Part shown: piece after piece, positions 4,950 to 46,262 of the stretch
How the letters are laid out: every line of letters starts with the position of its first letter
Numbering within the stretch: position 1 is the first letter of the stretch
NCBI GenBank assembly: GCA_964344415.1
Contig: CAYFMS010000002.1
Coordinates: 128,196-192,195, forward strand
DNA length: 64,000 bases
Direction of reading: 5' to 3'
From: an uncultured Gammaproteobacteria bacterium
Lineage (GTDB): Bacteria; Patescibacteriota; Patescibacteriia; UBA9934
Made by a program: the position numbers and the translations under genes
The notes under the pieces: model-generated
What the model was told of the DNA's origin: nothing
Databases searched by the model: none
What the model saw: the letters and a program-made list of their open reading frames with translations, nothing else

Positions 4950-5085
4950 TCAAATCGGATCTCAATTTAGCGATATTCTAAAATTATAATCGCTCCAATC
5001 GCTAATATTAGTGAATTTATAATTCAATATTCCGCGGAGATCGGATCTCGGATGTGGATAAGTAAATCGGATCTCGGGAAGGGAA
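4950..5085 (+). repeat. short repeats of atcggatctc(gg) and a GATGTGGATAAGT box upstream of rnhB
   Basis: Four copies of cggatctc and a gagatcggatctc palindrome. The perfect DnaA-box complement tgtggataa lies at 5062-5070. Confidence 0.55.
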
Positions 5086-5103
5086 ACATGCTAAGCTGGA
5101 ACT

Positions 5104-5703
5104 ATGACTGTTTCAACACCGACGCGAGCATTTGAAGCAAAAGTATTAGAGGAGGGTTATCGCTTTGTCGTTGGGGTTGATGAAGCGGGCGCAGGTGCGC
5201 TCGCCGGCCCCGTAGTGGCAGGTGCCGTCATCTTACATCCAACAGAGTCTGTCACGGGATTGCAAGATTCAAAAAAGCTCAGTGCAAAAAAGCGCGAGGA
5301 ATTATATTCGGCTATTTTAAAATATTCAGTGGCATGGGCTTTTGGTATGGCAACAGTCGAGGAAATTATGTTGCATGGAATCCGCCCAGCAAATTATCTC
5401 GCCATGCGCCGCGCTATAGAAAAAATTGAACAGGCAGAATATGCCCTCGTCGATGCATGGACAATTCCGTCACTTCACATACCTCAACTTGGAATCATAA
5501 GAGGCGACCAACAGGTCGAATCGATTGCAGCCGCTTCAATTATTGCAAAAGTAACACGCGATCGCATGATGATGGATTATCATGCACGCTACCCGATATA
5601 TGGTTTCGATAGCCATAAAGGGTATGGCACTCGCAAGCACCGTGAAGCTATTGAAAAGCATGGGCCATCACCGGTGCATCGAATGAATTTCACATTATAT
5701 TAA
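5104..5703 (+). CDS. rnhB: ribonuclease HII
   Basis: Motifs GVDEAGAGALAGPVV and DSKKLS. Confidence 0.85.
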   Translation: MTVSTPTRAFEAKVLEEGYRFVVGVDEAGAGALAGPVVAGAVILHPTESVTGLQDSKKLSAKKREELYSAILKYSVAWAFGMATVEEIMLHGIRPANYLAMRRAIEKIEQAEYALVDAWTIPSLHIPQLGIIRGDQQVESIAAASIIAKVTRDRMMMDYHARYPIYGFDSHKGYGTRKHREAIEKHGPSPVHRMNFTLY

Positions 5704-5704
5704 T

Positions 5705-5953
5705 ATGGGGCATCTTTCCGCAGAGCAGCTTGAGCAGAAATTGACAGATGCAAGAGGGGTGGTGACTGTCGGAAAAAAGTATCGACATTATAAAACTCGC
5801 GGAATATATATTATCGAGGATATTGTTTTATCTGAAAAAGATGAGGATATTTTGGTCGTGTACGCGAATACAGAAAATGGATTGAAATGGGCGAGGCCGC
5901 TTTCCAGCTTCACCGAGAAAGTCGACGGCCAATCCCGATTCGAAATGGTATAA
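5705..5953 (+). CDS. DUF1653-like small protein
   Basis: 82 aa with the motif YANTENGLKWARP. Confidence 0.4.
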   Translation: MGHLSAEQLEQKLTDARGVVTVGKKYRHYKTRGIYIIEDIVLSEKDEDILVVYANTENGLKWARPLSSFTEKVDGQSRFEMV

Positions 5954-5962
5954 TCCTGCTGT

Positions 5963-6685
5963 ATGAATATGAAATCTTGCTATTTCGCGACAGCTGATGA
6001 AATGGCGGAGCTCGACCGACTTGCCGTTGAGTCTGGTTTAGAAATTCGGCAAATGATGGAGCTTGCGGGATGGCATATGCTGGCGGTATTGCGGCGGCTG
6101 CGAATTAAAAAGAACAAGAGAATTGTCATTGTTGCAGGGGAGGGGAATAAGGGTGGTGATGGGCTGTCTGCAGCTCGTCATCTTTTAAATTCGGGTTATT
6201 CTGTTCAGATTATTCTCGTCGGCGATCGTCGGAAAATGAAAAAAGATGCGAGGCATCATTTAAAAATGGCTGATCGCATGAATATCCCTATTTGGTATTG
6301 GAAGGCGGAATCATCGCGCTGCGTGGAAATTCTCGGCATGTCCGATGTGATCATTGATGCGATGATTGGGTATCGATTGAAAGGATCACCGCGGGCGCCG
6401 TTTCGAGATGTGATTGAGGGAATCCAACTGCAAAAATCAAAGGTTATTTCATATGATTTACCGACCGGCATTGACCCGACAACGGGAATTCCAACGGCGG
6501 CATTTGTGCATGCGGATGCAACATTGACATTGGCACTTCCCAAAAAACTATTTCAAGCAAAAGAGGCTCGCAAGCATTCTGGAAGGATTTTTATAGCCGA
6601 TATCGGCATTCCGTCGATTGTTTATGATCAAATCCATGCGAGGAGCCGGCCACATTTCCGCAGCGGCGGAATGATTGAGCTTTGA
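5963..6685 (+). CDS. nnrE: NAD(P)H-hydrate epimerase (YjeF N-terminal domain)
   Basis: GEGNKGGDG motif, and DLPTGID within the Rossmann-like YjeF_N fold. Confidence 0.7.
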   Translation: MNMKSCYFATADEMAELDRLAVESGLEIRQMMELAGWHMLAVLRRLRIKKNKRIVIVAGEGNKGGDGLSAARHLLNSGYSVQIILVGDRRKMKKDARHHLKMADRMNIPIWYWKAESSRCVEILGMSDVIIDAMIGYRLKGSPRAPFRDVIEGIQLQKSKVISYDLPTGIDPTTGIPTAAFVHADATLTLALPKKLFQAKEARKHSGRIFIADIGIPSIVYDQIHARSRPHFRSGGMIEL

Positions 6686-6928
6686 TTACTTTCGCACCAA
6701 GAAAAATAAATACACGATAAGGGCAGTTACAAAAGCAAGAATGTGAACTTGGGGAATTTCGAGTATTCCTGGGATGAAATGCTCAAGATCGAGGATATTA
6801 AAATAATTGAGATGCATGATTTCTTTTGTTCTGATCGCATGAATTGCGAGAAGTATCATGTGAGCGCCCGCAGATAGCAGCATTGTTTTGAAGAGTGCAT
6901 CGATATACTTATTTTTGTGCATTTTCAT
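6686..6928 (-). CDS. small hydrophobic hypothetical protein
   Basis: 80-aa ORF supported by compositional signal only. Confidence 0.25.
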   Translation of the reverse strand: MKMHKNKYIDALFKTMLLSAGAHMILLAIHAIRTKEIMHLNYFNILDLEHFIPGILEIPQVHILAFVTALIVYLFFLVRK

Positions 6929-7164
6929 ACAGCCGTATTATAGCAAGTTCACTTGACTGGAGTGTGATTCACGGTTATCCTTTTGCTACATTTCGAATTA
7001 GCAAGCTGTCGTCGATTGCAATTTGATGTACTTACACTACGTCAGAATAGTAAAGTCTGTTGAGTACAAGGCGCGGGTGGTGGTCGAGGAGCCGTATTTA
7101 AACATACGGTGACGAAGACCGACGGGTCCCGCAACGCCGTAATCAGCAGACTTGGACTATTCTA

Positions 7165-7240
7165 GCCGCCGTAGCTCAGTTGGTAGAGCGCATCCATGGT
7201 AAGGATGAGGTCACCAGTTCAATCCTGGTCGGTGGCTCCA
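7165..7240 (+). tRNA. tRNA-Thr (GGT)
   Basis: Sequence GCCGCCGTAGCTCAGTTGGTAGAGC...atGGTaa...GGTTCAATCC...GGCTCCA with a hand-folded cloverleaf. Confidence 0.8.
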
Positions 7241-7244
7241 ACAA

Positions 7245-7268
7245 AGCCCGTCTTCTGACGGGTTTTGT
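7245..7268 (+). terminator. terminator after tRNA-Thr
   Basis: Stem cccgtc-ttct-gacggg followed by a T-run. Confidence 0.55.
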
Positions 7269-7408
7269 TGTCTCCTGAATATGATAAAGGGTTTCCGGCA
7301 ACGCCGGACCAGGCTCCGCCTGGCAAGCCCCGACGGTGGCTCCATCACGAATATGTGAATAGATCAGGGGTTCCCCCTGTTTTTTAATAGATCAGCTTTC
7401 AACTTTGT

Positions 7409-7440
7409 AAAAATAAAAAACCGAGGCGGCGATGCCTCGG
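7409..7440 (-). terminator. minus-strand rho-independent terminator
   Basis: Stem ccgaggc-ggcgat-gcctcgg with an A-run on the plus strand, which is a T-run on the minus strand. Confidence 0.55.
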
Positions 7441-7473
7441 ATCATGGGTGAAGATGCTGTAAGGCGGCGGGAG

Positions 7474-7650
7474 TTACCGGCCATGATCTTCAACGATTGC
7501 CGTGCCTGCGCAGCTACATTCCTGCACATAGCTCGTGAACAGAAAGAGGGCCAGGGTGAAGATCACGACGAGCGCTCGACCCTTACCGCCACTGCCTTTA
7601 TGATCTTGTTGATCATCCCAGTTCGCAAGATTATTGTCTGAACTCAACAC
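7474..7650 (-). CDS. possible small membrane protein (GTG or TTG start)
   Basis: Reads ...DNNLANWDDQQDHKGSGGKGRALVVIFTLALFLFTSYV... A GGAGG sits just upstream. The region is GC-rich and open on both strands, so the call is uncertain. Confidence 0.2.
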   Translation of the reverse strand: MLSSDNNLANWDDQQDHKGSGGKGRALVVIFTLALFLFTSYVQECSCAGTAIVEDHGR

Positions 7651-7687
7651 ACCTCCATTATTCGTAGCCTGAGATTACCACTTCTAC

Positions 7688-8062
7688 TTACTTTTTTCTA
7701 TACTTGGCTGTCTTTTTTGCAATTTTTCCCGGCTGTTTTACCCATTGTTTTCCAGATTTAGTACCTTTATTTTTTGCTCGACTTGTTGCCGCCTTTTCTC
7801 CTGGTTTCAATGCTTCACGAGCTTTTTTGGGCAAGTATCGACTCTCGCCATCTTTCCCAACATATCCCCAATCCTCATCAGTCCATTTTGCTAAATCATT
7901 ATCTTCAGATTTTGATCCAATGTATTCACCCCCGCGGTCTTTATATAACTTAACTGCATATTGCATGGCTCGAGCTGAAAATTTACCATCCATTTTCTTG
8001 ATGGCGTCTTTTTTACACTTTTCCCATAATTCTGGATCCTTGCGTTCCGCTGTTTTTGACAT
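7688..8062 (-). CDS. lysine-rich hypothetical protein
   Basis: 124 aa, MSKTAERKDPELWEKCKKDAIKK...KWTDEDWGYVG. The family is not recognised. Confidence 0.5.
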   Translation of the reverse strand: MSKTAERKDPELWEKCKKDAIKKMDGKFSARAMQYAVKLYKDRGGEYIGSKSEDNDLAKWTDEDWGYVGKDGESRYLPKKAREALKPGEKAATSRAKNKGTKSGKQWVKQPGKIAKKTAKYRKK

Positions 8063-8122
8063 ATTAAATATTATACCGCAGATATTGCTTGTTCTTGTGC
8101 GAATTGCTAATCTTGAATCAAT

Positions 8123-9127
8123 ATGAAGTTACTTGTGACTGGCGGGGCTGGATTTATAGGATCAAATTTTATCCATTACTGGCTAAAAAATCATCCCGAT
8201 GATGAAATTGTGAATCTCGATGCTCTGACCTATGCTGGGAATTTGGAAAATTTGCAGGGAGTTGAAAGTGATGAACGCTATCAGTTTGTGAAAGGGGATA
8301 TTACAGATCGAGATCTTGTTTTTAGCCTTGTGAAAGATTGTGACATTGTGGTGCATTATGCGGCGGAAAGTCATGTTGATCGGTCAATTTTAGATCCGGC
8401 AGCATTCATCAAAACAAATGTACTCGGGACGCAAGTGCTTTTGGATGCAGCGCGCGAATATGGGAAGCGATTCCATCATGTTTCGACGGATGAGGTTTAT
8501 GGAACATTAGCTCCAGAGGATTCTGCTTTTACGGAAGAATCTCCTTATAAACCGCGGAGCCCCTATGCGGCATCAAAAGCAGCGAGCGATCATTTAGTGC
8601 GCGCTTACCACGTGACATATGATTTGCCTGTTACATTATCGAATTGCTCGAATAATTACGGCCCATTTCATTTTCCAGAAAAATTAATCCCACTCTTTAT
8701 TACGAATCTTATGGAGGGGAAGAAGGTGCCAGTTTACGGAGATGGGGGGCAGATTCGTGACTGGATTCATACAGAAGATCATGCCCGAGGTGTTGAAGCG
8801 ATTATTAAAAAGGGGAAAGTCGGTGAAACATATTTGCTTGGGGGTAATAATCAGCCAACGAACCTTGAAATCACAAAAAAACTTCTTGATTTACTTGGAC
8901 GAGATGAATCCTTTATAGAATATGTGAAAGATAGGCCTGGGCATGACCGACGCTATGACATCGACTTTACAAAGGCGAAAAATGAATTAGGATGGGAACC
9001 GAAAATTGATTTGAATGCAGGACTTACAATGACGGTTGACTGGTATAAGAAAAATGAAGATTGGTGGAAGAATTGTAAGTCAGGTTCTTACCAAGAATAT
9101 TACGAAAAACAGTATAAAGATCGATAG
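8123..9127 (+). CDS. rfbB: dTDP-glucose 4,6-dehydratase
   Basis: TGGAGFIGS motif with a YxxxK catalytic context. The sequence is typical of RfbB. Confidence 0.85.
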   Translation: MKLLVTGGAGFIGSNFIHYWLKNHPDDEIVNLDALTYAGNLENLQGVESDERYQFVKGDITDRDLVFSLVKDCDIVVHYAAESHVDRSILDPAAFIKTNVLGTQVLLDAAREYGKRFHHVSTDEVYGTLAPEDSAFTEESPYKPRSPYAASKAASDHLVRAYHVTYDLPVTLSNCSNNYGPFHFPEKLIPLFITNLMEGKKVPVYGDGGQIRDWIHTEDHARGVEAIIKKGKVGETYLLGGNNQPTNLEITKKLLDLLGRDESFIEYVKDRPGHDRRYDIDFTKAKNELGWEPKIDLNAGLTMTVDWYKKNEDWWKNCKSGSYQEYYEKQYKDR

Positions 9128-9128
9128 T

Positions 9129-10217
9129 ATGAAAGCAGTTATTACGGCGGGCGGGCGCGGAACGCGATTAAGGCCCGTAACCTGGACAATGAATAAACAT
9201 GTGATACCCATTGCGAATGAGCCAATGATTTTTAATGCATTTCGGAAAATTGCGGAAACGGGCATTAAAGATGTGGCCGTCATCATCAATGAGGGTGATA
9301 TTGATTTGCCTCGTATTTGTGGTGATGGGTCAAGATGGGGTATTTCTCTAACGTATATTGAACAGGTCGGTGGGCCGCTTGGGCTCGCAAACACATTGTG
9401 GCAGGCAAAGGATTTTGTTGGAAATGATGATGTCCTTCTATACCTTGGAGACAATATCGTTCTTGGTTCGCTTTCTGATCTTGTGAACAAGTTTCAGAAT
9501 GAACATCTTGATTGCTGCTTGGCTCTAACTCGCGTTGATGACCCTGAGCGTTTTGGTGTTGCTGAAATTGATGCAGATGGCAGGATTACGGCCGTTATTG
9601 AAAAGCCGGAAAATCCACCGAATAATTTAGCAGTGACGGGACTCTATATTTATAAAGGGCCGAGCTATTTTGAGGCATATGAACATATTCAACCTTCAGA
9701 TCGAGGTGAGTATGAAATTTCAGATATTCATGACTGGTTTGTGAAAAATGGCCGTACTGTTGGATATGAAGAGATGTTTGGTTGGTGGAAAGATACAGGA
9801 AAGCCAGATGATTTGCTTGAAGGGAATCAGTTGCTATTGAATGAAATGGGGCTCGAGGATGCGACGATCGACGAGGCGGCAACGGTGCATAAGGATGCGC
9901 GTATTCAAGGACGCGTGAAAATTGCTGCGGGAGCGGAGATTGAGCAAGATGTATTGATTCGAGGCCCGGTTATCATTGGTGCTAATGCCAAGCTCGAGAA
10001 TTGTTATATTGGCCCGCATACCACGATTGGAAATAACACGGTTATTTCAGATTGCGAAATCGAGCATTCTATTGTTATGGATGGTGCGAAGATATCCACC
10101 AATGAACGCATTACAGACAGCATTATCGGTCACAATGCAACGATTGTGAAGCAGGCGGCATCTCGTCCCGGAGGCCATAAAATGGTCATCGGCGAGAATA
10201 CATATCTTGAATTATAA
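9129..10217 (+). CDS. sugar-phosphate nucleotidyltransferase with a C-terminal hexapeptide-repeat domain (RmlA-like, long form)
   Basis: N-terminal AGGRGTRLRPVT motif and a C-terminal left-handed beta-helix repeat region. The ATG lies 1 nt after the rfbB stop codon. Confidence 0.7.
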   Translation: MKAVITAGGRGTRLRPVTWTMNKHVIPIANEPMIFNAFRKIAETGIKDVAVIINEGDIDLPRICGDGSRWGISLTYIEQVGGPLGLANTLWQAKDFVGNDDVLLYLGDNIVLGSLSDLVNKFQNEHLDCCLALTRVDDPERFGVAEIDADGRITAVIEKPENPPNNLAVTGLYIYKGPSYFEAYEHIQPSDRGEYEISDIHDWFVKNGRTVGYEEMFGWWKDTGKPDDLLEGNQLLLNEMGLEDATIDEAATVHKDARIQGRVKIAAGAEIEQDVLIRGPVIIGANAKLENCYIGPHTTIGNNTVISDCEIEHSIVMDGAKISTNERITDSIIGHNATIVKQAASRPGGHKMVIGENTYLEL

Positions 10218-10337
10218 GATTTATTCACGTTGCTTCTTGCATGCTCATTTGAGTTGTGAATGCAATTTATTCACAATTCCTTAGAAAAATAGTGAAATTG
10301 TGCTAAGATCGCTCTGTAATCAATAATTAATCAAATT

Positions 10338-10622
10338 ATGGAAAAGCGTTTAACAAAATCTCAACTTATGTCAGCACTAGCTGAAACTTGGGGAATTTCA
10401 AAGAAAGAAGCGGAAGAAGGGTACAATGCCTTCGTGGAGATGCTTTATAAGGAAATTAATCGAGCAGGAGAGGTAATGCTTCCAGGACTTGGTAAATTTG
10501 CAAAGAAGCACCGAAAGGCGCGAATGGGGCGTAACCCAATGACGGGTGAGTCAATTCAAATCCCTGCAAAGACGGTTTTGAAGTTCGGAGTAAACAAGGC
10601 GGCAAAAGATGCATTGCTCTAA
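10338..10622 (+). CDS. hup: HU/IHF-family DNA-binding protein
   Basis: Motif GKF...ARMGRNPMTGESIQIPA. Confidence 0.8.
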   Translation: MEKRLTKSQLMSALAETWGISKKEAEEGYNAFVEMLYKEINRAGEVMLPGLGKFAKKHRKARMGRNPMTGESIQIPAKTVLKFGVNKAAKDALL

Positions 10623-10751
10623 GGTGTAATTTGTATCTGGCTCGTACGGAGTCGGGTTTTATACAGAAATCTCCCTCATGGATTTCCTTGGGGGATTTTT
10701 GTTTAAATGCTGTAAATTTGAATGCAGCTAAGTCTGTGGTAAAGTCAAAAT

Positions 10752-11948: not shown

Positions 11949-11953
11949 GACAT

Positions 11954-13038: not shown

Positions 13039-13173
13039 AAATTAGTAAGTAGAGAGTAGTTAGTGGTAAGTAGGATATGACTGATAAAAATCATTCAAAT
13101 CCACGATGGCGGAATTGTAGCGGATTTTGGCTATTTTGGCAAGTGCTGGAGGGGTGATATAATCTTTGCATAT

Positions 13174-14529
13174 ATGAAGGGGGATTCCGGAGGCAAAAAG
13201 GCGCATATTGTTGCGGTGAATATGGGATATGGTCATGAGAGGCCGGCACATGTCATGCGGCAGCTTTTTGGCTATAAAAATCAGGTGATAATAGCCAATG
13301 ATTATGAGGGTATTCCCGAACGAGATCAGCGATTATGGGAGGATGGCCGCAAGGTCTATGAAAAGGTATCTCGTTTCAAAAAAGTGCCTGTTTTTGGACA
13401 AATGGTATTTGGGATCATGAATGAGATTCAGCGAATACCTCCTTTTTATCCACAAAGAGATTTATCATCCCCAAGCCTACAGGTTCGTCAATTTTATTGG
13501 TTGATTCGCCAGAAAAACATGATGCGGCACTTAATTGAGAAGTTAGGGGAGCATCCTTTGCCATTTGTCAGCACATTTATGTCGCCAGCATTTGCTGCTG
13601 AAGAATTTGGTTACCCGGAAGATATTTTTGTGCTTTGCACGGATTCCGATATAAGCAGAGCATGGGTCCCGCTCGATCCAAAAAAGACGCGCATTCAGTA
13701 CTTTGCACCGACTGGCCGCGTTGCTGCTCGTTTGAATATGTATGGCGTGCCTGAAAAGAATATTCATCTAACCGGATTCCCACTTCCTCCAAAAAATATT
13801 GGCGGGACGGAATCAAAGTTGGTCCTTTCAGATTTAAACCGGCGTATTTGTAATTTGGATCCGAATGGATATTTTATTGCACATACGGGTGTGGCATTGA
13901 ATGCCTATCTTGGCGCGCAGTATTGTCGAAATGTTCAGAAAAAGAAAGCGACAAAGATTCAATTGGCTTTTGCTGTTGGTGGAGCTGGTGCTCAAAGAGA
14001 AATCGGCGGTGCGATTATGAAATCTCTCAAGAGAGAGCTGGCGCAAAATAAAATAGTTTTGCATTTAATTGCGGGGACGAGGCTAGAGGTTGCGCGATAT
14101 TTTGAAGATGCTGCTCGGCAGTTAAGGCTTTCGAAGTTTTTAGGAAAATCGATCAAAATTCTTATCGAGCCGAGCCGCCCTCAATACTTTGATGCATTTT
14201 CTGCGCTCATGAGGAAAATCGATATTTTATGGACAAAGCCAAGTGAATTGTCTTTTTATGCTGGGCTTGGAATTCCGATTATTATGGCACCGACCGTTGG
14301 GTCTCAGGAAGATTTTAATAAGCAATGGTTGACGCAAATGGGGGCGGGGATTGATCAAATGGATCCGCGCTATACAAATGAATGGCTTTTTGATTGGATT
14401 GAATCTGGTGCACTTGCGCGGATGGCTTGGAATGGATACATCGAGGCGCCGACGCATGGTGTTTACCGAATCCATGAGACGATTAGTGGGCGTAAGCATG
14501 ATATTCACCCATTACCACTCATAGTCTAG
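13174..14529 (+). CDS. putative GT-B fold glycosyltransferase (MurG/MGDG-synthase-like)
   Basis: N-terminal NMGYGHERPAH and C-terminal PIIMAPTVGSQEDFNKQWL...GAG, which resembles GT28 C-terminal motifs. Confidence 0.4.
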   Translation: MKGDSGGKKAHIVAVNMGYGHERPAHVMRQLFGYKNQVIIANDYEGIPERDQRLWEDGRKVYEKVSRFKKVPVFGQMVFGIMNEIQRIPPFYPQRDLSSPSLQVRQFYWLIRQKNMMRHLIEKLGEHPLPFVSTFMSPAFAAEEFGYPEDIFVLCTDSDISRAWVPLDPKKTRIQYFAPTGRVAARLNMYGVPEKNIHLTGFPLPPKNIGGTESKLVLSDLNRRICNLDPNGYFIAHTGVALNAYLGAQYCRNVQKKKATKIQLAFAVGGAGAQREIGGAIMKSLKRELAQNKIVLHLIAGTRLEVARYFEDAARQLRLSKFLGKSIKILIEPSRPQYFDAFSALMRKIDILWTKPSELSFYAGLGIPIIMAPTVGSQEDFNKQWLTQMGAGIDQMDPRYTNEWLFDWIESGALARMAWNGYIEAPTHGVYRIHETISGRKHDIHPLPLIV

Positions 14530-14850
14530 GTGTCGCTCGTGAGTTAGCGATCTTTCGCTTCAGTTTTCCGTTGCTCATTCACCGTACGTTTCAGTACGGC
14601 TCATTCCGCTACTCAAACTTCAACGAAATATCATCTAACTCACTTCGCGACCACAATCGTAATCCCAAACTTGATATGGGATCCATACGATGCGCCTCTC
14701 GACTACTTACTATTTTCTACTAACTACTTACTGCTAAATCACTGCGCGACCCTATTCGAAATCCTGAGCCTGTCGAAGGATCTTTCCAAATTGCGACCAG
14801 AATCTCCTCAATCTCCTAAATCTCCTTTATCTCCGTTTCACGCATATAAT
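14530..14850 (+). repeat. mosaic intergenic repeat element, copy B (modules M1-M2-M3-M4)
   Basis: Starts immediately after a stop codon. Shares gtcgctcgtgagttagcgatc, the hairpin ccgtacgtttcagtacgg, cacttcgcgacc, and gatcgaaatcctgagcctgtcgaaggatct with the other loci. Confidence 0.7.
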
Positions 14851-15109: not shown

Positions 15110-15180
15110 TTTTTATTTTGTCGCTTGTGAGTGAGCGATCTTGATCGAAATCCTGAGCCTGTCGAATTGACGATTGCTCT
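15110..15180 (+). repeat. mosaic intergenic repeat element, copy D (M1 fused to M3)
   Basis: The segment ttgtcgcttgtgagtgagcgatcttgatcgaaatcctgagcctgtcgaa. Confidence 0.7.
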
Positions 15181-15620: not shown

Positions 15621-15699
15621 TCAACCCACGGTGATTTGCAATGGTGTACGCTCTCCCAAATAGATGGGAGAGATTTTTTTATGCTAAAATGCCTTCACT

Positions 15700-18349: not shown

Positions 18350-18560
18350 CTGTCGCTTGTGAATGAGCGCTCTTTCGGCTCAGATCTGCGCTACTCGACG
18401 TCGCACCTTTCAGTGCGCCTTACTGCGTGTGCTCGATCTTCACCGAAATAGCATCTCATTCACTTCGCGACCCGGATCGAAATCCTGAGCCTGTCGAAGG
18501 ATCTTTCTGTATCTACAAGCTACCAGCTAAAACCTACCAGCTACTTACTGCGCAACTCGC
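18350..18560 (+). repeat. mosaic intergenic repeat element, copy C (M1-M2-M3-M5)
   Basis: gctgtcgcttgtgaatgagcgctc, hairpin cgcac-ctttca-gtgcg with compensatory substitutions, cacttcgcgacc, and gatcgaaatcctgagcctgtcgaaggatct. Confidence 0.7.
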
Positions 18561-18587
18561 TACAGATCATGATATAATGAATGCATT

Positions 18588-29371: not shown

Positions 29372-29388
29372 CCGAGCATTGACCAAAC

Positions 29389-29445
29389 TTATCCACAGTC
29401 AATGCCCGACTTAGATGTGGATAAGTCGGGAAGGGGATTTGAGGT
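29389..29445 (+). promoter_or_regulatory. nested palindrome containing inverted DnaA-box sequences (cttatccaca / tgtggataag)
   Basis: Sequence acTTATCCACAgtcaatgCCCGACTTAgatgTGGATAAGTCGGGaaggg. It lies between murF and the GC-rich island. Confidence 0.5.
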
Positions 29446-29493
29446 TTTGATGTAGGGTAAAATGGCATCTACGCTACGTGTAAGGAGGATACG

Positions 29494-30291
29494 ATGCAAT
29501 ATAAGCCCGAAATGCTTCGTGCTGCAGAGGTCGTCCTTCGCGGCGGCTGTGCTGAGCTCTCATATGACTTCATGTCCACGGTTGAGTCGTTGTACCCAAT
29601 TTTCGAAACGAGAGACTCGCTGGACGATCATCTACATACACTGCTTCAAGTCGACAGAAGCAAGGACGGAAAGGATCCAGACGATGGATTCATCGTCCGT
29701 GACCAGAAAATGCGGAATCACATCGGAGAGCTTTACGATCCGAAAGACGTGTTCATGTACCGGCCTGATCTTTGGTCGCGTCACTACTGCGACACCCTGC
29801 CACCACGTGTGCTCGACAGATTGCGGTCGTATTGGAATCCGTTGCGTACGGTCCATGGGAAATGTGACAGGATTCACCGTGAATTCTGTCTAGCTCTTGG
29901 TGAGGTTTCTGGAGAGCGGGAGCTTTTCGACCAACTGTCTCACAGGGATCATTCCGAGTTTGCTGGTTCAAAGCTTCGACTGCTCCGTTACCGCGAGCCG
30001 CGAGAGACGGATCCAGCAAAGGTCGGAAAATTCCACACCGACCGATGCGCGATCACGTATCACTTGGCTCAAAATCATCCTGGACTCGTTGGTCCAGACA
30101 ATGAGCTGGTAGATGTTCGACCTGACAAGATCCGTATTTTCCCATCTGATCAGCTGCAAGTTGTGACGAGTGGAAGGATTCCGGCATGGCGTCATGGCGC
30201 AAGGTATGTCGAACCATACCCGCCCGGCGGGCGTCGCATGGCCGTGTACTTCGCTAGGTTCTTCAAGGGCCAGAACGACAGAGGTATCTGA
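29494..30291 (+). CDS. 2OG-Fe(II) oxygenase superfamily protein on a high-GC (~57%) island
   Basis: SD aaggagg upstream. Contains LRLLRYRE...FHTDRCAITYHLAQ...GLVG...WRHGARY, which is an IPNS-like HxD...H pattern. Overlapping ORFs here are GC artefacts. Confidence 0.55.
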   Translation: MQYKPEMLRAAEVVLRGGCAELSYDFMSTVESLYPIFETRDSLDDHLHTLLQVDRSKDGKDPDDGFIVRDQKMRNHIGELYDPKDVFMYRPDLWSRHYCDTLPPRVLDRLRSYWNPLRTVHGKCDRIHREFCLALGEVSGERELFDQLSHRDHSEFAGSKLRLLRYREPRETDPAKVGKFHTDRCAITYHLAQNHPGLVGPDNELVDVRPDKIRIFPSDQLQVVTSGRIPAWRHGARYVEPYPPGGRRMAVYFARFFKGQNDRGI

Positions 30292-30326
30292 CACCTTTCT
30301 TCAAGAGGGGTGTTTTTATTTTGCCC

Positions 30327-30356
30327 TTGCATCGCATAGAATGAGTGGTCTATAAT
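30327..30356 (+). promoter_or_regulatory. sigma70-like promoter TTGCAT-N18-TATAAT
   Basis: Consensus -10 hexamer about 50 nt upstream of the riboflavin kinase ATG. Confidence 0.45.
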
Positions 30357-30409
30357 GACCAATTAGTCATTGCAAAATAGATGAAACCATGTAAGATATT
30401 CGAAATTCT

Positions 30410-36003: not shown

Positions 36004-36099
36004 AAGAAAAACAAGGGATGCCGGATCGAGTCCGGCATGACGGTTGCTGATGGATTCCGGCTCGGAGGCCAGAATGACGATCACGGATTGAAGCCGTAA

Positions 36100-36390
36100 C
36101 TCGTGACCTTGATCGAAATCCTGAGCCTGTCGAAGGATCTATTCCCGCCTTTGCTCTTCCCCCCTTCGCTCGGCTAGCCGAGCTTCGGAGGGACATGTAG
36201 AGCTACAGCGGACATGTATGCCCGGAATGACGCGAAGCTCCTAAAATCTCCTTTCAATCTCATTTATCTCCTCCACATAAATCCGTATATTCGTACTATC
36301 CGTAAATCTGTAACGGTGACCCCACAAGCTACGAGCTAAAACCTACAACCTAAAATTCGTGCTATCCGTAAATCAGTAACGACACCCTAA
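36100..36390 (+). repeat. mosaic intergenic repeat element, copy E (M3-M4-M5 plus internal tandem)
   Basis: gatcgaaatcctgagcctgtcgaaggatct, ctcctaaaatctcctttcaatctc, and two cgtactatccgtaaatctgtaacg-like units. Confidence 0.7.
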
Positions 36391-38067: not shown

Positions 38068-38114
38068 ATGCCTCGAGTTTAGCAGAGATTAGAGAGCTGC
38101 GCTATAATACAACC

Positions 38115-38588: not shown

Positions 38589-38636
38589 GCTATACACATT
38601 GATAAAAAAATATAATCCAAGGTATTCTGGATAGAT

Positions 38637-39611: not shown

Positions 39612-39613
39612 AT

Positions 39614-40638: not shown

Positions 40639-41329
40639 AGACGAGAATCTTGGCAATCTTTTGCGAGACATTAAAAATCAAAGTTTGCAGCCAAATGAGG
40701 TCATTATTGCGGATGCCCAATCGACGGACAGAACATGTGAAATAGCAGAAGACTTTGACGCGAAGGTGGTTGACGGTGGTTTGCCGGGCCCTGGCAGAAA
40801 TAGAGGTGCGGAAGCAGCGAAAAGCGATATTTTCATGTTTATTGATGCCGATGCACGACTTTTTGATACCGATTTTCTCAAAGACGCAATGCATGAATTC
40901 GAAGAAAGAGAGCTTGGTATTGCTGGTTGTGATCTTGTGCCTGTAACGCATCGGCTATTCGATAGATTTGGTCATCGAGTTTACAATTGGCTTGTCAGGC
41001 GTTGGGAAAAGAAGCGTCCGCATGCCGCCGGAAGCTTTATCATGGTGCGATCAAGTATTCATGATCGTTTGAACGGTTTTGACGAAGATATTCTGCTTGC
41101 AGAGGATAGAGATTACACATTCAGAGCGAATAAAATCTCGAAATTTGGTATGCTGAATGAAGTAGAAATTGGTGTATCGGTTCGACGTTTTGACAAAGAT
41201 GGTCGTTTGAAAACAATCATAAAATATCTAGCGGCTGAACTTCACTACAGACTCTTAGGTCCGATTAAGCATAACTATTTCAATTATGGTTTTGGGTACG
41301 AAAAAAAGCGAAGCTCCACAAACGAATAA
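40601..41329 (+). CDS. family 2 glycosyltransferase
   Basis: Motifs IIIPTKNE and IDADA (DxD). Confidence 0.7.
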   Translation: MPTLAIIIPTKNEDENLGNLLRDIKNQSLQPNEVIIADAQSTDRTCEIAEDFDAKVVDGGLPGPGRNRGAEAAKSDIFMFIDADARLFDTDFLKDAMHEFEERELGIAGCDLVPVTHRLFDRFGHRVYNWLVRRWEKKRPHAAGSFIMVRSSIHDRLNGFDEDILLAEDRDYTFRANKISKFGMLNEVEIGVSVRRFDKDGRLKTIIKYLAAELHYRLLGPIKHNYFNYGFGYEKKRSSTNE

Positions 41330-41993
41330 ATTATTTGATCAGCGTGCTGTTGATCATGCAGCGGTTATCGACAAAATCGTTCAAGAAAGTTCGCCACGAA
41401 AAACATTTCTCCTTCTCATTATTGTTTCAAGTGTTATGGCCGCTATCGGTCTTTTGAATGATTCTGCTGCCATTGTAATTGGAGCGATGCTTGTTGCGCC
41501 GCTTTTGTGGCCAATTCTTGGAATTTCAATGGGCTTACTTCTTAGGGATTTTAAAATGATTTGGCTTTCTACACTCAGTATTATTTTTTCAATTATTTTA
41601 GCGCTCGGTACGGCAATACTGATCACATTCCAATACATCCCGCTTGGGGCATCGAATGAAATCATGAATCAAACAACAGTGAATTTTATGATTCCTGTTG
41701 CTATCGCTTCTGGAATCGCTGCCGCTTTTGCCGTGAGTTATGAACATATTAAAGAGGCCGTAACGGGCGTCGCAATATCCGTAGCGCTTATTCCGCCGCT
41801 TGTCACAATAGGAATTGGTCTTGGCGGAACAGATTGGTCTCTCGTAACACGCGCGAGCAATGTCTTTGTTATCAATCTATTTGGTATAATCATTACATCA
41901 CTCATTATTTTTGCGCTTTTAGGATTTGGATCTCAACGTCGCGCGGCTGAAAATGCCGTAAAGAAGGAAGAAAAGGTTTTAAAAACGCAATAA
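41286..41993 (+). CDS. DUF389 family membrane protein
   Basis: Motif IGAMLVAPLLWPI and a repeat architecture of about six TM helices. Confidence 0.5.
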   Translation: MVLGTKKSEAPQTNKLFDQRAVDHAAVIDKIVQESSPRKTFLLLIIVSSVMAAIGLLNDSAAIVIGAMLVAPLLWPILGISMGLLLRDFKMIWLSTLSIIFSIILALGTAILITFQYIPLGASNEIMNQTTVNFMIPVAIASGIAAAFAVSYEHIKEAVTGVAISVALIPPLVTIGIGLGGTDWSLVTRASNVFVINLFGIIITSLIIFALLGFGSQRRAAENAVKKEEKVLKTQ

Positions 41994-42013
41994 TGTCCTG
42001 ATAAAAGGGAGGT

Positions 42014-42925
42014 ATGGCTCATGACATCGTTGGCGGCAAGGAATTTGTTTGGTGGCATTTCTCAGAATTTGAGGAAGGTGATTTTGAGACTCTTGAAAAG
42101 AATTTTAAATTTCATCCACTCGATTTTGATGACTTGAGAGATGATACCGAGCTGACAAAGCTCGATCATTACAAACATTATCTGTTTTCCATCATTAATA
42201 TTCCCGTTTTTGACACAAGGACAATGTCAATCACGAAAAGGAATTTGGGAATTTTCATCGGTAAGGATTATGTCGTGACCGTGACGAGGCAGCCCATTCA
42301 GGCTGTTGATCGTTTTTTTAGTCGTGTACAGCGAAGTAGTGGATTGAAGCGCGAATCATTTTCAAAGACGACAGGATATCTTCTGTATAAATTGCTTGAT
42401 TATGTTTTGCGGGATGTGAAAGTCATTTTGCGCGAATTAGTGCGCGAAGCAGAGCAGGTTGAGAAACGTGTTTATGATCGCCATACTCGCGTTACAACGA
42501 AACGACTTGGCATTTTGCGCCGCAATGTTCTTTTTATGCGGCATATGATTGAGCCAAAAAAGATTTTACTTGAACAATTCATCAATGCTCGCAAGACATA
42601 TATTCCAAAAACGCTTGAAATTTACTTCGATGACATACGGGATACATTGAATAGTATTTCTGTCGTACTCGAAAATCAGAAAAATATTGTTGATGGACTC
42701 TTTGACGTTAATGAAGCATTTTTGTCCCATCGAACAAATGAAATCATCCGCTTTCTCACAATTATTTCTGTTGTATTGATGCCACCAACACTTATCACGA
42801 GTTTTTATGGAATGAATGTAGATGGACTGCCATTTGCAAATAATATTCTCACCGTTTCGGGCGTCCTTCTGGCTTCACTGATCATCTTCATTTTTATTAT
42901 TCTAAGAATAGATCGTAGAAATTAA
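42014..42925 (+). CDS. corA: CorA-family magnesium transporter
   Basis: YGMN motif before the two C-terminal TM helices. Confidence 0.75.
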   Translation: MAHDIVGGKEFVWWHFSEFEEGDFETLEKNFKFHPLDFDDLRDDTELTKLDHYKHYLFSIINIPVFDTRTMSITKRNLGIFIGKDYVVTVTRQPIQAVDRFFSRVQRSSGLKRESFSKTTGYLLYKLLDYVLRDVKVILRELVREAEQVEKRVYDRHTRVTTKRLGILRRNVLFMRHMIEPKKILLEQFINARKTYIPKTLEIYFDDIRDTLNSISVVLENQKNIVDGLFDVNEAFLSHRTNEIIRFLTIISVVLMPPTLITSFYGMNVDGLPFANNILTVSGVLLASLIIFIFIILRIDRRN

Positions 42926-42926
42926 T

Positions 42927-43496
42927 ATGCGACCCATTCCGGTATATATCATCCCATCGCATGTCTATCTGTCGGCTGAAGATCAGGTAAAGCTTTTTGG
43001 TTCTGGACATGCAATGACTATTCTTGAAGATCATATTCATGCGGGGCAATATGTCTATCAGGAGAAGGTTAATGTTTCCGGAAGACTAAAGCGCGATTTG
43101 GATTTGCATGTGCTTGGCCCAAATTGGAAGAGAAGTCATGTTGAGCTGACGCCGACGGAAGCAGTTTATCTGGGCTATAAGCTCGACGAGGTAAAAACAG
43201 GGTCACTTCTAGATGCAGCGCCAATTACCATCACGGGGCCGAATGGATCGGTCGACCTCGATCACGGTGTGATTATTCCAAAGCCTCATATGACATGTAA
43301 TATTGAGGATGCGAGGCGATTGAATCTTGCGAATGGGGATAGAGTCGCTGTTGAGATACTTGGTGATCACCTAAGGAAAGTCGAGGAGGCGGTTGTGCGT
43401 GTACATCCGACATTCTCATTGAGTGTTGAATTGCATCAAGATTATGCAAGGGGGCTTTGGGTAAATCACCGAGTTCATGCTCATATTATTTCATGA
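42927..43496 (+). CDS. PduL-like phosphate acyltransferase family protein
   Basis: Two half-domains, with PHMTCNIEDARRLNLANGDRVAVE and VRVHPTFSLSVELHQD matching PduL-type motifs. This is a from-memory match. Confidence 0.4.
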   Translation: MRPIPVYIIPSHVYLSAEDQVKLFGSGHAMTILEDHIHAGQYVYQEKVNVSGRLKRDLDLHVLGPNWKRSHVELTPTEAVYLGYKLDEVKTGSLLDAAPITITGPNGSVDLDHGVIIPKPHMTCNIEDARRLNLANGDRVAVEILGDHLRKVEEAVVRVHPTFSLSVELHQDYARGLWVNHRVHAHIIS

Positions 43497-44569
43497 TTAT
43501 GTTTAAGAAAATCATCATTCTGGCAGCATTATTATTCATGCCTATTACAGCCTTGTCTGCCGAAGGGGCTGATTTGGCGCTTCTTACGGGCAATATTCGT
43601 TTCTCAACAGATACATTCGTTGTCGGGGAAGAGGTACGCATTTATGCGACCGTTCGTAATGCGGGTACGGAAGATGTTGCCGGATTTGTTCGATTTAATC
43701 TCGGAAATAAAGTTATAGGCGATTCCCAGCCCATTTCATTGGTATCTAAGGGCGCGCAGGAAGAGGTTTGGGTAGATTTCACAGTTCCGGACAACCCATT
43801 TAATATTCAAATACAAATTAAGGGCACAGATCCGCAAGATATAAATGCAGCAAATGATTCGTATTTATCACCACTTTATAATCCTATTGTAGACGATGAT
43901 GGTGACGGTGTTTCAAATGACAGCGACAATTGCCCTCAAGCATCAAATGCTGATCAGGTGGATAGCGATGGTGATGGAATTGGCGATGCTTGCGATGAAC
44001 CAGATATTGTCGAGCAGAACGAGGAGGATGAGCCAGAAGAATTGCCTGCAACCGAAGAAGTGGCCCAAGAAGAAGCGCAAACTGAGCCGGTCATCGAAAC
44101 AAGTCAGCCAGCATCTCAATCGCCTGTGCAGAACTTGCCAGATATTTCAGTAGACATTACTTCAGAGTCAGGAATTGAAGAATTGCAAAAGAGTATTGTA
44201 CCGAATTCGAATCTTAGCCTCTCTCCACGTGCTGGATTTGTATTCGCACCGGTAAATTGGAAGACCTATGATTTTAAGGCACTTTACGGAGATCGAAGTG
44301 AGCATCAATATCATTGGGAATTCGGTGATGGCGCTATTTCAGCTCAAAGTTCTGTACAGCATGCATTCCCCGGGCCAGGGAAATATGAAGTCAGATTAAC
44401 CGTTACTGCACCGGATGGGACGGAGCAAATTGATTCGCAGATGATAGAGATTTCCTTCTTTCATATGCAGAATCCGGTTGTGATTGCATTAACGGTTGTG
44501 CTATTACTTCTCATCATCACCATGTTTATTCTGGCGGTGAAGAGAAAGAATGCAGAGCGGAGCTCATGA
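43493..44569 (+). CDS. secreted/cell-surface protein with thrombospondin type 3 Ca-binding repeats and a PKD domain
   Basis: Signal peptide, DDDGDGVSNDSDNCP...DSDGDGIGDACD, YHWEFGDG, and a C-terminal TM helix. The ATG overlaps the upstream stop codon as ATGA. Confidence 0.55.
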   Translation: MIMFKKIIILAALLFMPITALSAEGADLALLTGNIRFSTDTFVVGEEVRIYATVRNAGTEDVAGFVRFNLGNKVIGDSQPISLVSKGAQEEVWVDFTVPDNPFNIQIQIKGTDPQDINAANDSYLSPLYNPIVDDDGDGVSNDSDNCPQASNADQVDSDGDGIGDACDEPDIVEQNEEDEPEELPATEEVAQEEAQTEPVIETSQPASQSPVQNLPDISVDITSESGIEELQKSIVPNSNLSLSPRAGFVFAPVNWKTYDFKALYGDRSEHQYHWEFGDGAISAQSSVQHAFPGPGKYEVRLTVTAPDGTEQIDSQMIEISFFHMQNPVVIALTVVLLLLIITMFILAVKRKNAERSS

Positions 44570-46179
44570 TTAAGAAAATCTTACAAAATAGTTCGAAGAC
44601 GATTACGAGCGCGGCAATCATTGTCGCGGTCTTTTCTGTATTGTCGCGCATTGTTGGATTTATTCGTGACCGTATTCTTGCAGGTCAATTTGGTGCGGGC
44701 GAAGAACTCGATGTCTATTTTGCAGCTTTTCGTATCCCAGATTTCTTTTTTCAGATGATTGTTGTAGGGGCATTGTCAGCAAGTTTTATCCCCTTATTCA
44801 CGAAATACTATCGAGTAAAAGGACATGAGCGGGCTTGGAGGATGACAAATACGGTTCTCAATCTGGTGCTTACCACATTTGTTATTTTGTCAGGACTTGG
44901 CATTATTTTTGCGGATTATCTGGCACCATTTATCGCTATTGGTTATAGCGCAGAATTGCAGGCTCAGGTTGCTGATTTGTCGAGAATTATGTTCGGGGCT
45001 CAGATTCTGCTCGCTATTTCGATGGTATTCGGATCTGTCTTACAGAGCGTTCGACGATTCCTGATCTATTCAATGGCTCCTGTCTTTTATAATTTTGGAA
45101 TCATTGCGGGTGCATTATTCTTAGCGCCCGAATATGGAGTGATGGGACTTGGTTTTGGTGTTCTCATCGGTGCTGCGCTTCATCTTCTTGTGCAATCTAT
45201 TGGTGTCTTTGCTCTTGGGTATCGATACCGGCCCATACTTCGCCTTCGCAGTCCGGAAGTGAAATACATCATAAAGCATATGCCACCGCGTGTACTTGGG
45301 CTTGCGGTCAATCAATTAAATTTTGTTTTGATGACGATATTCGCAACACTTCTTGGGACAGGTGCGGTGACTATTTTGCAATTCGCGTATAATCTCAATT
45401 TTTTCCCAATTGGAGTCATTGGCGTTTCCTATGCTATCGCGGCTTTCCCGACATTATGTGATTATGCTCAGCACAAGAAGCAAGAAGAATATAGGCGAGC
45501 TTTTTCACTCACCGTTAGGCAAATCATTTTCTTTATTATGCCAGCAACGGTGCTTTTTATTTTAATGCGCGCGCAAATTGTACGAGCCGTCGTGGGGGCG
45601 GGGGAATTTGATTGGCCGGCGACCATTGCAACGGCAGATTTACTTGGATTATTTGCAATTAGTTTCTTTGCACAGGCGATTTCGTATTTACTTATCCGTG
45701 CTTTCTTTGCAAAAAATGACACCATGACTCCATTTTGGATTGCACTTCTGTCGCTCATTATCAATATTGGTTTGGCATGGCCACTCACGCAGCATTTTGG
45801 GCCAATAGGATTTGGGATGGCCTTTTCGGCATCTGCTATTGTTCAAATGCTTGCACTTTGGACGATTTTACGAGGTCGCGTTGGCGGACTCGATGAAGGA
45901 AAAATATTTAAATCCACAGCAATTTTACTTGTTGCCGCAGCGCTTGCAGCGATCACAATTCAGCTGCTCGAGCAAGTCGTTGTTGTCTTTTTCACGCTCG
46001 ACACTTTCCTCGGCATTGTCGGTCAGATTGTGATTGCCGGTGGAATGGGAATGCTGATGTATGGACTTTCTGCGTATTTGATGAGGTCAGAAGAGATGAT
46101 TGATTTCCTCGCTGGATTCAAGAAACGTTTCCTGAAACGGGCAAAGCCGGAAGAACCAATTGCCGCCGCCTCGCAATAG
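44566..46179 (+). CDS. murJ: lipid II flippase MurJ
   Basis: N-terminal LSRIVGFIRDRILAGQFGAG and DVYFAAFRIP. The membrane topology is MOP-type. Confidence 0.8.
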   Translation: MIKKILQNSSKTITSAAIIVAVFSVLSRIVGFIRDRILAGQFGAGEELDVYFAAFRIPDFFFQMIVVGALSASFIPLFTKYYRVKGHERAWRMTNTVLNLVLTTFVILSGLGIIFADYLAPFIAIGYSAELQAQVADLSRIMFGAQILLAISMVFGSVLQSVRRFLIYSMAPVFYNFGIIAGALFLAPEYGVMGLGFGVLIGAALHLLVQSIGVFALGYRYRPILRLRSPEVKYIIKHMPPRVLGLAVNQLNFVLMTIFATLLGTGAVTILQFAYNLNFFPIGVIGVSYAIAAFPTLCDYAQHKKQEEYRRAFSLTVRQIIFFIMPATVLFILMRAQIVRAVVGAGEFDWPATIATADLLGLFAISFFAQAISYLLIRAFFAKNDTMTPFWIALLSLIINIGLAWPLTQHFGPIGFGMAFSASAIVQMLALWTILRGRVGGLDEGKIFKSTAILLVAAALAAITIQLLEQVVVVFFTLDTFLGIVGQIVIAGGMGMLMYGLSAYLMRSEEMIDFLAGFKKRFLKRAKPEEPIAAASQ

Positions 46180-46180
46180 T

Positions 46181-46262
46181 TATCCCCACCAAGGTTAAAC
46201 CTTGATGTGGATAAGTGCCGTTCAAGGTTTAACCTTGCTGTGGATAAGTAAAGTCTGTTAAT
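46181..46262 (+). promoter_or_regulatory. cluster of three DnaA-box-like sites with two tandem palindrome-plus-box units
   Basis: ttatcccca, then caaggttaaaccttg-aTGTGGATAAGt, then caaggtttaaccttg-cTGTGGATAAGt. These are revcomp TTATCCACA. Lies directly upstream of alaS. Confidence 0.5.

Follow-up and report, generated by a model that had tools for sequence, protein, structure and literature searches.

We analysed a 64-kb stretch of DNA (the window), which lies at ~122.4-186.4 kb of a metagenome contig of 768,188 bp (ENA ERZ930061), and found that three of its intergenic regions, upstream of rnhB (locus 1), a 2OG-Fe(II) oxygenase gene (locus 2) and alaS (locus 3), share a 13-mer that contains a perfect DnaA box and that is accompanied at every direct copy by a short palindrome. 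We consider the chances about even that these loci are copies of a small, modular mosaic repeat resembling the repetitive extragenic palindromes (REPs), the conserved tag of which would be an extended DnaA box. In each unit, a short palindrome able to form a hairpin precedes, by 0-3 nt, a tag of 11-13 nt that on the other strand reads ACTTATCCACA(TC), a perfect DnaA box with extended flanks. At loci 1 and 3 the tag is not part of the palindrome that it abuts, and at locus 2 it is overlapped by the 3' arm of the hairpin; the palindrome varies in sequence among loci and genomes with its pairing kept. An AT-rich core between two arms (locus 1) and CGGGAAGGG(GATTT) (loci 1 and 2) appear to be optional modules. 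The closest proteins to those encoded in the window were from Patescibacteria and 'Candidatus Uhrbacteria' metagenome-assembled genomes (MAGs), and the host of the window is a Patescibacteria genome. Most genes of the window are on the + strand, and its intergenic share is ~11%. Together with flanks adding 13.6 kb, 77.6 kb of this genome was read.

As listed in Table 1, the 13-mer GATGTGGATAAGT was found in exact form once at each locus, and locus 3 carried an additional copy with one mismatch. We also found an inverted copy, ACTTATCCACAGT, at 29387-29399, the inverted 11-mer ACTTATCCACA occupying 29387-29397. A preliminary description of this DNA had reported these copies and had named the flanking genes correctly; all copies were recovered, but the positions given there (5059, 29421 and 46207) were 3-8 nt too high. 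The palindrome that it had noted beside the box was present at every direct copy, although it overlapped the box at locus 2, and the CGGGAAGGG that it had placed after two copies followed directly at 29427-29435 and only after an 11-nt insert at 5075-5083.

The enrichment of the motif was confined to long, exact matches. The common 11-mer core TGTGGATAAGT was present five times in the window, each time in intergenic DNA, versus 0.03 copies expected. The perfect 9-mer TTATCCACA was present six times versus 0.72 expected, a count that none of 100 shuffles reached, so that the chance-level box frequency allowed for in the preliminary description was not found within the 64-kb window. Five of these six boxes were intergenic, and the sixth, at 13446, was in coding DNA. 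When up to one mismatch was permitted, 21 boxes were counted in the window against 18 expected; one-mismatch boxes were not enriched, so that only long copies with an exact match make up the excess. Measured against the DnaA 9-mer consensus (TTATCCACA / TT(A/T)TNCACA), the three loci thus hold five perfect boxes in intergenic DNA and the variant TTATCCCCA. The box density was 9.4 per 100 kb, as compared with ~1.4 per 100 kb in the other genomes compared, and no further box was present in the 13.6 kb of flanks around the window. Of 17 clear cases, 14 had TGTGGATAA on the strand that is rich in G, a bias that is confounded with gene orientation.

The architecture of the three loci was similar but not identical. 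The gap between palindrome and tag was 0-3 nt at every direct copy, and among the seven intergenic 13-nt palindromes with 6-bp arms in the window, three abutted a box. Perfect palindromes of 13-15 nt were located at 4939, 5037, 46190 and 46223, and the stems at locus 2 were 8-9 bp long. Folded as DNA, locus 1 formed 16-nt arms around the AT-rich core (-28.7 kcal/mol, z -4.8) and locus 2 formed two hairpins (z -3.7), while the longest inverted repeat of the entire window was locus 3 itself, with 29-nt arms (46177-46205 and the second palindrome; z -8.2). Three boxes fell within 70 bp upstream of alaS and an inverted pair was found at locus 2; as single strands, the two inverted boxes of loci 2 and 3 fold into a duplex DnaA box within a hairpin stem. 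The variant box TTATCCCCA of locus 3 was also present in the related sequence L083, and in L092 it took the form TGGGGATAAG.

Table 1. Positions of the box units and of the predicted promoter elements beside them, in window coordinates.
Feature	Position	Strand	Remark
Locus 1, left arm TCCGAGATCCGATCTC	4936-4951		holds palindrome GAGATCCGATCTC (4939-4951); pairs with 5037-5052
Locus 1, half-palindrome module AAATCGGATCTC, first copy	4952-4963	+	
Locus 1, AT-rich core between arms	4964-5036		
Locus 1, right arm GAGATCGGATCTCGGA	5037-5052		
Locus 1, palindrome GAGATCGGATCTC	5037-5049		just 5' of box
Locus 1, 13-mer GATGTGGATAAGT	5051-5063	+	DnaA box TGTGGATAA at 5053-5061
Locus 1, second AAATCGGATCTC module, then CGGGAAGGG	5064-5083	+	CGGGAAGGG at 5075-5083
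rnhB, predicted extended -10 TGcTAAGCT	5089-5097	+	6 nt before ATG at 5104; from sequence and L091 orthologue TGgTATAGT
Segment extra in window	29372-30409	+	box/hairpin unit, predicted TAAAAT -10, 2OG-Fe(II) oxygenase gene (29494-30291), terminator
Locus 2, hairpin 1 GCATTGAC / GTCAATGC	29376-29405		inverted box ACTTATCCACA (29387-29397) in loop
Locus 2, hairpin 2 CCCGACTTA / TAAGTCGGG	29405-29413 / 29422-29430 (arms)		loop and 3' arm overlap 13-mer
Locus 2, 13-mer GATGTGGATAAGT	29414-29426	+	box at 29416-29424
Locus 2, module CGGGAAGGGGATTT	29427-29440	+	near copy CGGGAGGGGATTTT upstream of alaS in L083
2OG oxygenase, predicted -10 TAAAAT	29458-29463	+	followed by Shine-Dalgarno sequence
Locus 3, variant inverted box TTATCCCCA	46180-46188	+	directly after murJ stop codon
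Locus 3, palindrome CAAGGTTAAACCTTG	46190-46204		
Locus 3, 13-mer GATGTGGATAAGT	46204-46216	+	box at 46206-46214
Locus 3, palindrome CAAGGTTTAACCTTG	46223-46237		reverse complement of CAAGGTTAAACCTTG
Locus 3, near copy GCTGTGGATAAGT	46237-46249	+	box at 46239-46247
alaS, predicted extended -10 TGtTAATAT	46256-46264	+	9 nt before ATG at 46274

Comparison with related genomes revealed that the units upstream of alaS and of the 2OG oxygenase gene are lineage-specific insertions, since more distant relatives have compact spacers without a box and the alaS spacer of L083 has palindromes without a perfect box. The gene order murJ-alaS was kept in the relatives. In L084-L087 (71-74% AlaRS identity), the spacer between the two genes was only 26-39 bp long and contained the same extended -10 element and no box. 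In L083, the closer relative (85% AlaRS identity), more than 189 bp upstream of alaS contained the palindrome CGAGGTTSAACCTCG at least five times, together with TTATCCCCACC, as in the window, and CGGGAGGGGATTTT; no perfect box TGTGGATAA was present in this spacer. The palindrome CAAGGTTAAACCTTG of the window corresponds to CGAGGTTCAACCTCG in L083, with a compensatory pair change. Among 80 distant genomes, none had a box upstream of alaS. At locus 2, the comparison was made with L094, which is the same relative as L089/L090 (NCBI GCA_964462325.1), as shown by its MurF, which was located on the same NCBI contig of 93.5 kb. In L094 the flavokinase gene follows murF after 30 nt and the segment 29372-30409, which in the window separates murF from the riboflavin kinase gene, is absent; this segment is therefore an insertion.

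The box upstream of rnhB, in a gene order (rpmG-rnhB) that was likewise kept in the relatives, was conserved in two other genomes. In L089/L090 (74% RNase HII identity), CGAGGTTGAACCTCG-AA-TGTGGATAAGT was located 46 nt before the rnhB start; in the alignment of the upstream regions, the 12-nt ATGTGGATAAGT was invariant and the preceding ~150 columns were of visibly low identity. The palindrome GAGATCGGATCTC of the window and its orthologue GAGGTTGAACCTC in L089 differed by two compensatory double substitutions. In L092/L093 (71% RNase HII identity), TGTGGATAAG and TGGGGATAAG were present, and after each of them came one arm of a hairpin, GGTTGGACC / GGTCCAACC. In L091 (69% RNase HII identity), only GATGTGGTATAGT was found before rnhB, which is a true extended -10 element that resembles the 13-mer but is not the same thing, and two other perfect boxes were present in 5.5 kb.

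The relative L094 contained three intergenic boxes in 21 kb. Two of these, at 6900 and 20603, were each internal to a copy of a long composite repeat; the genes on either side of one of these copies are convergent. The order of the composite was palindrome GAGGTTCAACCTC, an AT-rich stretch of ~45-60 nt, a palindrome, the box and a second palindrome, AGGTCSGACCT; the AT-rich stretch is similar to the core of locus 1, and the layout of locus 1, with arms around an AT-rich core and then the box, is the same. The 0-3-nt gap at every direct copy and the internal position of the box in the L094 repeats argue that palindrome and box form one unit rather than sharing spacers by chance. The third box of L094 was different, in that a stand-alone TTATCCACA was found at a ribonucleotide-reductase (RNR) promoter (2802-2875), followed by the NrdR-type boxes ACCACAATATATTGTGGT and CACAACATATTGTGT with centres ~33 bp apart. 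The RNR gene at this syntenic place of L094 is absent from the window, and the left flank carries, close to the window, a gene for an RNR small subunit (L132, 14-1048). In terms of copy number, the window contained five boxes and four core palindromes in 64 kb, and the relative at least 13 palindromes in ~37 kb. The first unforced base pair outside the required core was paired in 18 of 24 units, with four double changes; the pair count is partly circular, as core pairs were required by the selection, and only this first unforced pair is informative.

A metagenome collection was scanned with the pattern GAGGTTNAACCTC-N0-12-TGTGGATAAG, which demands both palindrome and box. Seven matches were obtained, of which one was a chance match in GC-rich coding DNA and six were real, with stems that extended past the pattern, the longest arms measuring 14 bp. 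Three of the six (L096, L098 and L099) were located 0-100 nt from an IS200-like Y1 tyrosine transposase gene resembling those of the REP-associated tyrosine transposases (RAYTs); the positions concerned are L096 13270-14062, L098 1520-2023 and L099 200-935. Y1 genes of 226 aa or more were flanked by hairpins with a GAGGTTWAACCTC core, and a DnaA box abutted one hairpin. In particular, L099 contained a 226-aa Y1 gene with a palindrome on both sides and a box abutting the upstream-side hairpin, in an element of ~735 bp. The Y1 proteins matched Pfam Y1_Tnp with E-values of 7e-4 and 2e-3, and their sole NCBIfam match was the REP-associated tyrosine transposase (E 1.6e-8), all below the cut-off. 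A tblastn search with these proteins gave no other match in ~1.4 Mb of sequence searched. The arrangement in these three contigs is that described for REPs and RAYT genes (PMC3733652). The suggestion in the preliminary description of a variable hairpin of the IS200 or REP kind gained most from the new data, through the Y1 genes adjoining three of six metagenome matches, but no such gene was found in the 77.6 kb.

The tag matched the DnaA box at nine of nine positions. An inverted pair of the 11-mer, ACTTATCCACA-N5-35-TGTGGATAAGT, was present in 29 viral contigs (L103-L131, IMG/VR), where we estimated that fewer than one was expected. The spacers of these pairs were 5-35 nt long, most often 15-16 nt, and head-to-head pairs with 15-18-nt spacers were common. 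In the other boxes of these contigs, the two bases 5' of TTATCCACA were AG in 11 of 21 and AC in 3 of 21, and the ACTTATCCACA and AGTTATCCCCA of the window follow this general extended form of the box. Because an A[C/G] flank is general among DnaA boxes, identity over the 11-mer alone does not prove copying by descent. On the strength of the 9/9 core, the general A[C/G] flank and the box at the RNR promoter of L094, DnaA is the most likely binder of the tag. The contigs with inverted pairs were viral or prophage sequences of very different GC content; a form that recurred in human-gut samples had a 16-nt spacer, ATACAATATACGGTAT, resembling an NrdR box, and L103 (eight boxes) and L116 (six boxes) look like origins.

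We also examined the promoters near the units. In many genes of the window, an extended -10 element (TGnTAnAAT) was found 6-10 nt before the ATG with no Shine-Dalgarno sequence (for example at 5951-5962, 13151-13173, 15676-15699, 18565-18587, 38096-38114 and 46256-46273), and this spacing suggests that leaderless mRNAs are widespread in the host. Canonical sigma-70 promoters were also present, such as TTGACT-17-TAGCAT before rpmG. The relatives showed this layout before alaS and rnhB as well, and the extended -10 element of alaS was kept in L083, L084 and L086 (TGaTAATAT, TGcTAATAT). Relative to the predicted promoters, the boxes would be located at about -53 to -41 (rnhB), -56 to -44 (2OG oxygenase gene), and -34 to -22 and -67 to -55 (alaS). 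The possibility that the 13-mer is itself a promoter was rejected, as other genes use TGnTAnAAT and the hexamer ATAAGT has no key A at position 2.

Several other known elements were considered and rejected. With Rfam covariance models, only tRNAs scored above threshold and locus 1 had no match even at E up to 5, and a riboswitch, a T-box or a known small RNA was rejected on this basis. The hairpins at the three loci had no T-runs, whereas canonical terminators with T-runs exist elsewhere in the genome, and intrinsic terminators were thus dismissed. NrdR boxes, parS, dif, CRP-like sites, KOPS (GGGNAGGG matches GGGAAGGG) and DNA-uptake sequences were rejected because their consensus, spacing or copy distribution did not fit.

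If the repeat interpretation is correct, the units would be of the REPtron or IS200/IS605-derived miniature type and would owe their spread within this Patescibacteria lineage to the action of a Y1 (HUH) tyrosine transposase on hairpins in single-stranded DNA, the conserved tag being the binding site of the host initiator DnaA. No Y1 gene was found at any of the three window loci, so units of IS200/IS605 type could only be non-autonomous derivatives here. With the unit 9-42 nt upstream of the extended -10 element, a strong DnaA site would be brought near the promoters of rnhB, the 2OG oxygenase gene and alaS; as a by-product, these genes might become DnaA-responsive, or DnaA might be soaked up. 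In a bolder form, which we put forward tentatively and think less likely to be right than wrong, this would be a Patescibacteria lineage with mobile DnaA boxes, that is, Y1-moved REP-like hairpins tagged with the initiator site. The element might then exploit DnaA, or the replication cycle, to transpose as a single strand, and with every insertion a promoter region would acquire a strong DnaA site, so that DnaA would be rewired or titrated in a genome smaller than 1 Mb.

A number of observations weigh against the repeat interpretation. Three different hairpins in one genome and a low copy number are both unusual for the REP family, and the tag is neither GTAG nor CGTC; next to the stems it reads (GA)TGTGGATAAGT. 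The cognate Y1 enzyme of this genome is hypothetical: neither a Y1/RAYT gene nor dnaA was found in the 77.6 kb, and the loci examined in the relative had no Y1/RAYT gene either. The Y1 proteins found elsewhere fell below the curated cut-offs, with no DnaA_C-like domain detected, and they belong to metagenome matches that were chosen by a two-module pattern, have 0-10 nt between hairpin and box, and may be unrelated to the window organism. Template switching can yield seemingly compensatory changes in palindromes without selection. Finally, the rnhB box is shared by three genomes, and a hairpin-less box is present at an NrdR-regulated promoter, so that plain DnaA regulation could explain part of the pattern.

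The proposed unit shares properties with several known systems without matching any of them completely. The outside end of Tn5 (IS50) contains a DnaA box, and in such transposon ends, as would be the case here, a mobile end or enzyme is coupled to DnaA-box recognition. The A site of the ABC primosome, a hairpin with a dnaA box that serves as a priming signal, is known from plasmid single-strand initiation signals; loci 2 and 3 are like it in that their single strands can form a duplex DnaA box in a stem, whereas locus 1 has only one box. DnaA boxes outside oriC, such as those of E. coli nrdAB and dnaA and the clusters of B. subtilis, resemble the present sites as perfect TTATCCACA copies upstream of genes, in pairs or clusters, but the present sites are identical over 11-13 nt, abut hairpins, are polymorphic for insertion and occur inside dispersed repeats. 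IS200/IS605 elements and their miniature derivatives have subterminal hairpins rather than terminal inverted repeats, as seen in L099, where the Y1 gene lies between two hairpins in ~735 bp with a specific sequence abutting one end, and locus 1 resembles a gene-less derivative with two arms around an AT-rich core and then a box. In contrast, this family has targets of 4-5 nt rather than the 11-13 nt conserved here, and the L094 box is internal rather than flanking.

A REP is defined as a palindrome with a tag, and RAYT genes have either REPs or terminal inverted repeats on their flanks (PMC3733652). Like these REP/RAYT systems (REPtrons, TIRYT/TIRtrons), the present units are short intergenic palindromes with a conserved, unpaired tag at one end, which occur as dispersed copies, dimers, clusters and mosaic modules and which, in three contigs, adjoin an IS200-like Y1 gene or flank it on both sides (PMC3733652). 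They differ by a 10-13-nt DnaA-box tag, several unrelated stems in one genome, low copy number in the window and the lack of a RAYT gene in 77.6 kb; by the published definition of a REP (PMC3733652), the short hairpin-forming palindrome is present and the GTAG/CGTC tag is missing. In subclass 2.1.2 of TnpA_REP, the protein has a C-terminal Bac_DnaA_C-like domain and the flanking repeats are unlike DnaA boxes (Quentin et al., PMC6006769). This enzyme is again a case of mobility coupled to DnaA-box recognition, but the Y1 proteins here have no detectable DnaA_C-like domain and the repeats here do resemble DnaA boxes.

The main alternative, which we regard as rather unlikely, is that these are ordinary DnaA-regulated promoters, the boxes having been selected in place at rnhB, the 2OG oxygenase gene and alaS and the palindromes being unrelated REP-like or terminator-like hairpins that share the spacers. 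Such promoters would account for the perfect consensus with the usual A[C/G] flank, for the orientation of all direct copies towards the downstream gene at 9-42 nt from the predicted extended -10, and for a box at rnhB that was kept in L089 and L092/L093 while its surroundings diverged; the L094 box beside two NrdR boxes is a classical arrangement of the DnaA regulon, and the relatives also show an intergenic excess (two perfect boxes in 5.5 kb of L091, three in 21 kb of L094). However, the absence of the alaS and 2OG sites from the syntenic relatives indicates that they are not ancestral regulatory sites, the copies are identical over 11-13 nt with no tail of degenerate sites, and a palindrome lies within 0-3 nt of the box at every direct copy. 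The box inside a dispersed repeat of L094, one copy of which separates convergent genes, and the Y1 transposase genes adjoining such units also speak against it. Titration or recycling sites like datA or DARS, buffering free DnaA in a very small genome, seem very improbable. The clustering of three boxes within 70 bp at alaS and of the inverted pair at locus 2, the high box density and the head-to-head pairs with 15-18-nt spacers common elsewhere would suit such a role, but no locus of this kind is conserved, the relatives lack the alaS cluster, clusters of two or three boxes are small, and the hairpins would be left unexplained. The preliminary description had proposed DnaA-regulated promoters or a titrating cluster, and the evidence on this proposal is divided: the perfect box, the conservation at rnhB and the box at the RNR promoter agree with it, while the insertions at alaS and the 2OG gene and the dispersed repeat of L094 do not.

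A further alternative, which we hold to be unlikely, is that the tag is read by the transposase or another dedicated protein, as GTAG is in REPs, its identity with the DnaA box being a coincidence. A variant, TGGGGATAA, recurs in three genomes and departs from the DnaA consensus at a normally critical position. The units lie beside Y1 genes in L096, L098 and L099, and REPs are defined by an unpaired conserved tag beside a hairpin (PMC3733652). Nevertheless, a chance 9/9 match to the most universal bacterial DNA site is very unlikely (by our estimate ~1e-5 per 11-mer), the flanks follow the general preference of DnaA boxes, the RNR promoter has a box without a hairpin, and the core 9-mer is kept across genomes with different hairpins. 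Lastly, there is next to no chance that a cryptic or secondary origin is located at 46180-46262 or at 4600-5100, as the preliminary description had considered for the former region. An AT-rich 70-nt stretch lies beside the box at locus 1, locus 3 has three boxes, and the region of locus 1 has the top GATC density of the window, with 15 GATC in 460 bp (4609-5070) versus ~2 expected; yet five of these 15 come from GAGATCSGATCTC palindromes and half-copies, and the others are distributed over the L33 gene, two terminator tails and a repeat module. GC skew was positive and cumulative skew rose monotonically across the window and both flanks. A tblastn search, with a B. subtilis DnaA sequence as query, gave no match to dnaA in the window, both flanks or any locus examined. 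With a skew that never changes sign and no dnaA in the sequence read, none of the three loci is an origin; in addition, gene direction is the same to the left and to the right, neither dnaA nor dnaN is nearby, and the alaS and 2OG loci are insertions that syntenic relatives lack.

The window contained further features in the neighbourhood of the units. A second, commoner intergenic repeat of ~170-200 nt was found at 14531-14790, 15119-15175, 18351-18510 and 36091-36143, in part at 4745-4845, and in the left flank (L132, 1050-1250). It is composed of the modules TGTCGCTYGTGAGT..., CACCGTACGTTTCAGTACGG... and GATCGAAATCCTGAGCCTGTCGAAGGATC, begins right after the stop codons of several genes and had no Rfam match. 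Its CACCGTACG module was kept in L089 (2715-2810) and L094 (6594-6720 and 20187-20300), where it precedes the composite that contains the box. The intrinsic terminator of rpmG (L33) and its tail were duplicated 187 nt apart with 93% identity (4706-4749 and 4893-4936), and the duplicates bracket one copy of the CACCGTACG module. The product of alaS (46274-48043) is a short alanyl-tRNA synthetase of 589 aa that ends after the second additional domain; many Patescibacteria, DPANN archaea and some Lentisphaeria, spirochaete and clostridial MAGs share this short form at 50-60% identity. Immediately before tRNA-Thr(GGT), a GC-rich self-complementary stretch (7040-7160) with no Rfam match at E up to 1 lies in a ~1-kb gap that has no open reading frame of at least 120 aa and in which smaller genes were called; this stretch may be an undescribed small RNA.

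REPs, RAYTs, miniature elements of IS200 type and DnaA boxes outside oriC are already known; for their combination here, we could not find a description. In the literature, no account was found of a hairpin repeat tagged by a full DnaA box in a candidate-phyla-radiation genome, and a full-text search on DnaA boxes in this phylum gave nothing relevant. To our knowledge, almost nothing is known about the regulatory or repetitive DNA of candidate-phyla-radiation bacteria. If the sites are plain DnaA operators, they offer an ordinary but useful first view of the DnaA regulon in the phylum, with extended -10 elements and leaderless starts. If, on the other hand, the repeat interpretation is true, REP-like repeats with a link to Y1 transposases exist in these reduced genomes, and a REP-type tag can be the full site of a host factor, the DnaA box, rather than a tetranucleotide. 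Promoters would then gain DnaA sites by repeat insertion, which is a simple route to an altered regulon or titration load, and the repeats would be a sequence-level counterpart to the puzzling DnaA-like domain in some REP-type transposases.

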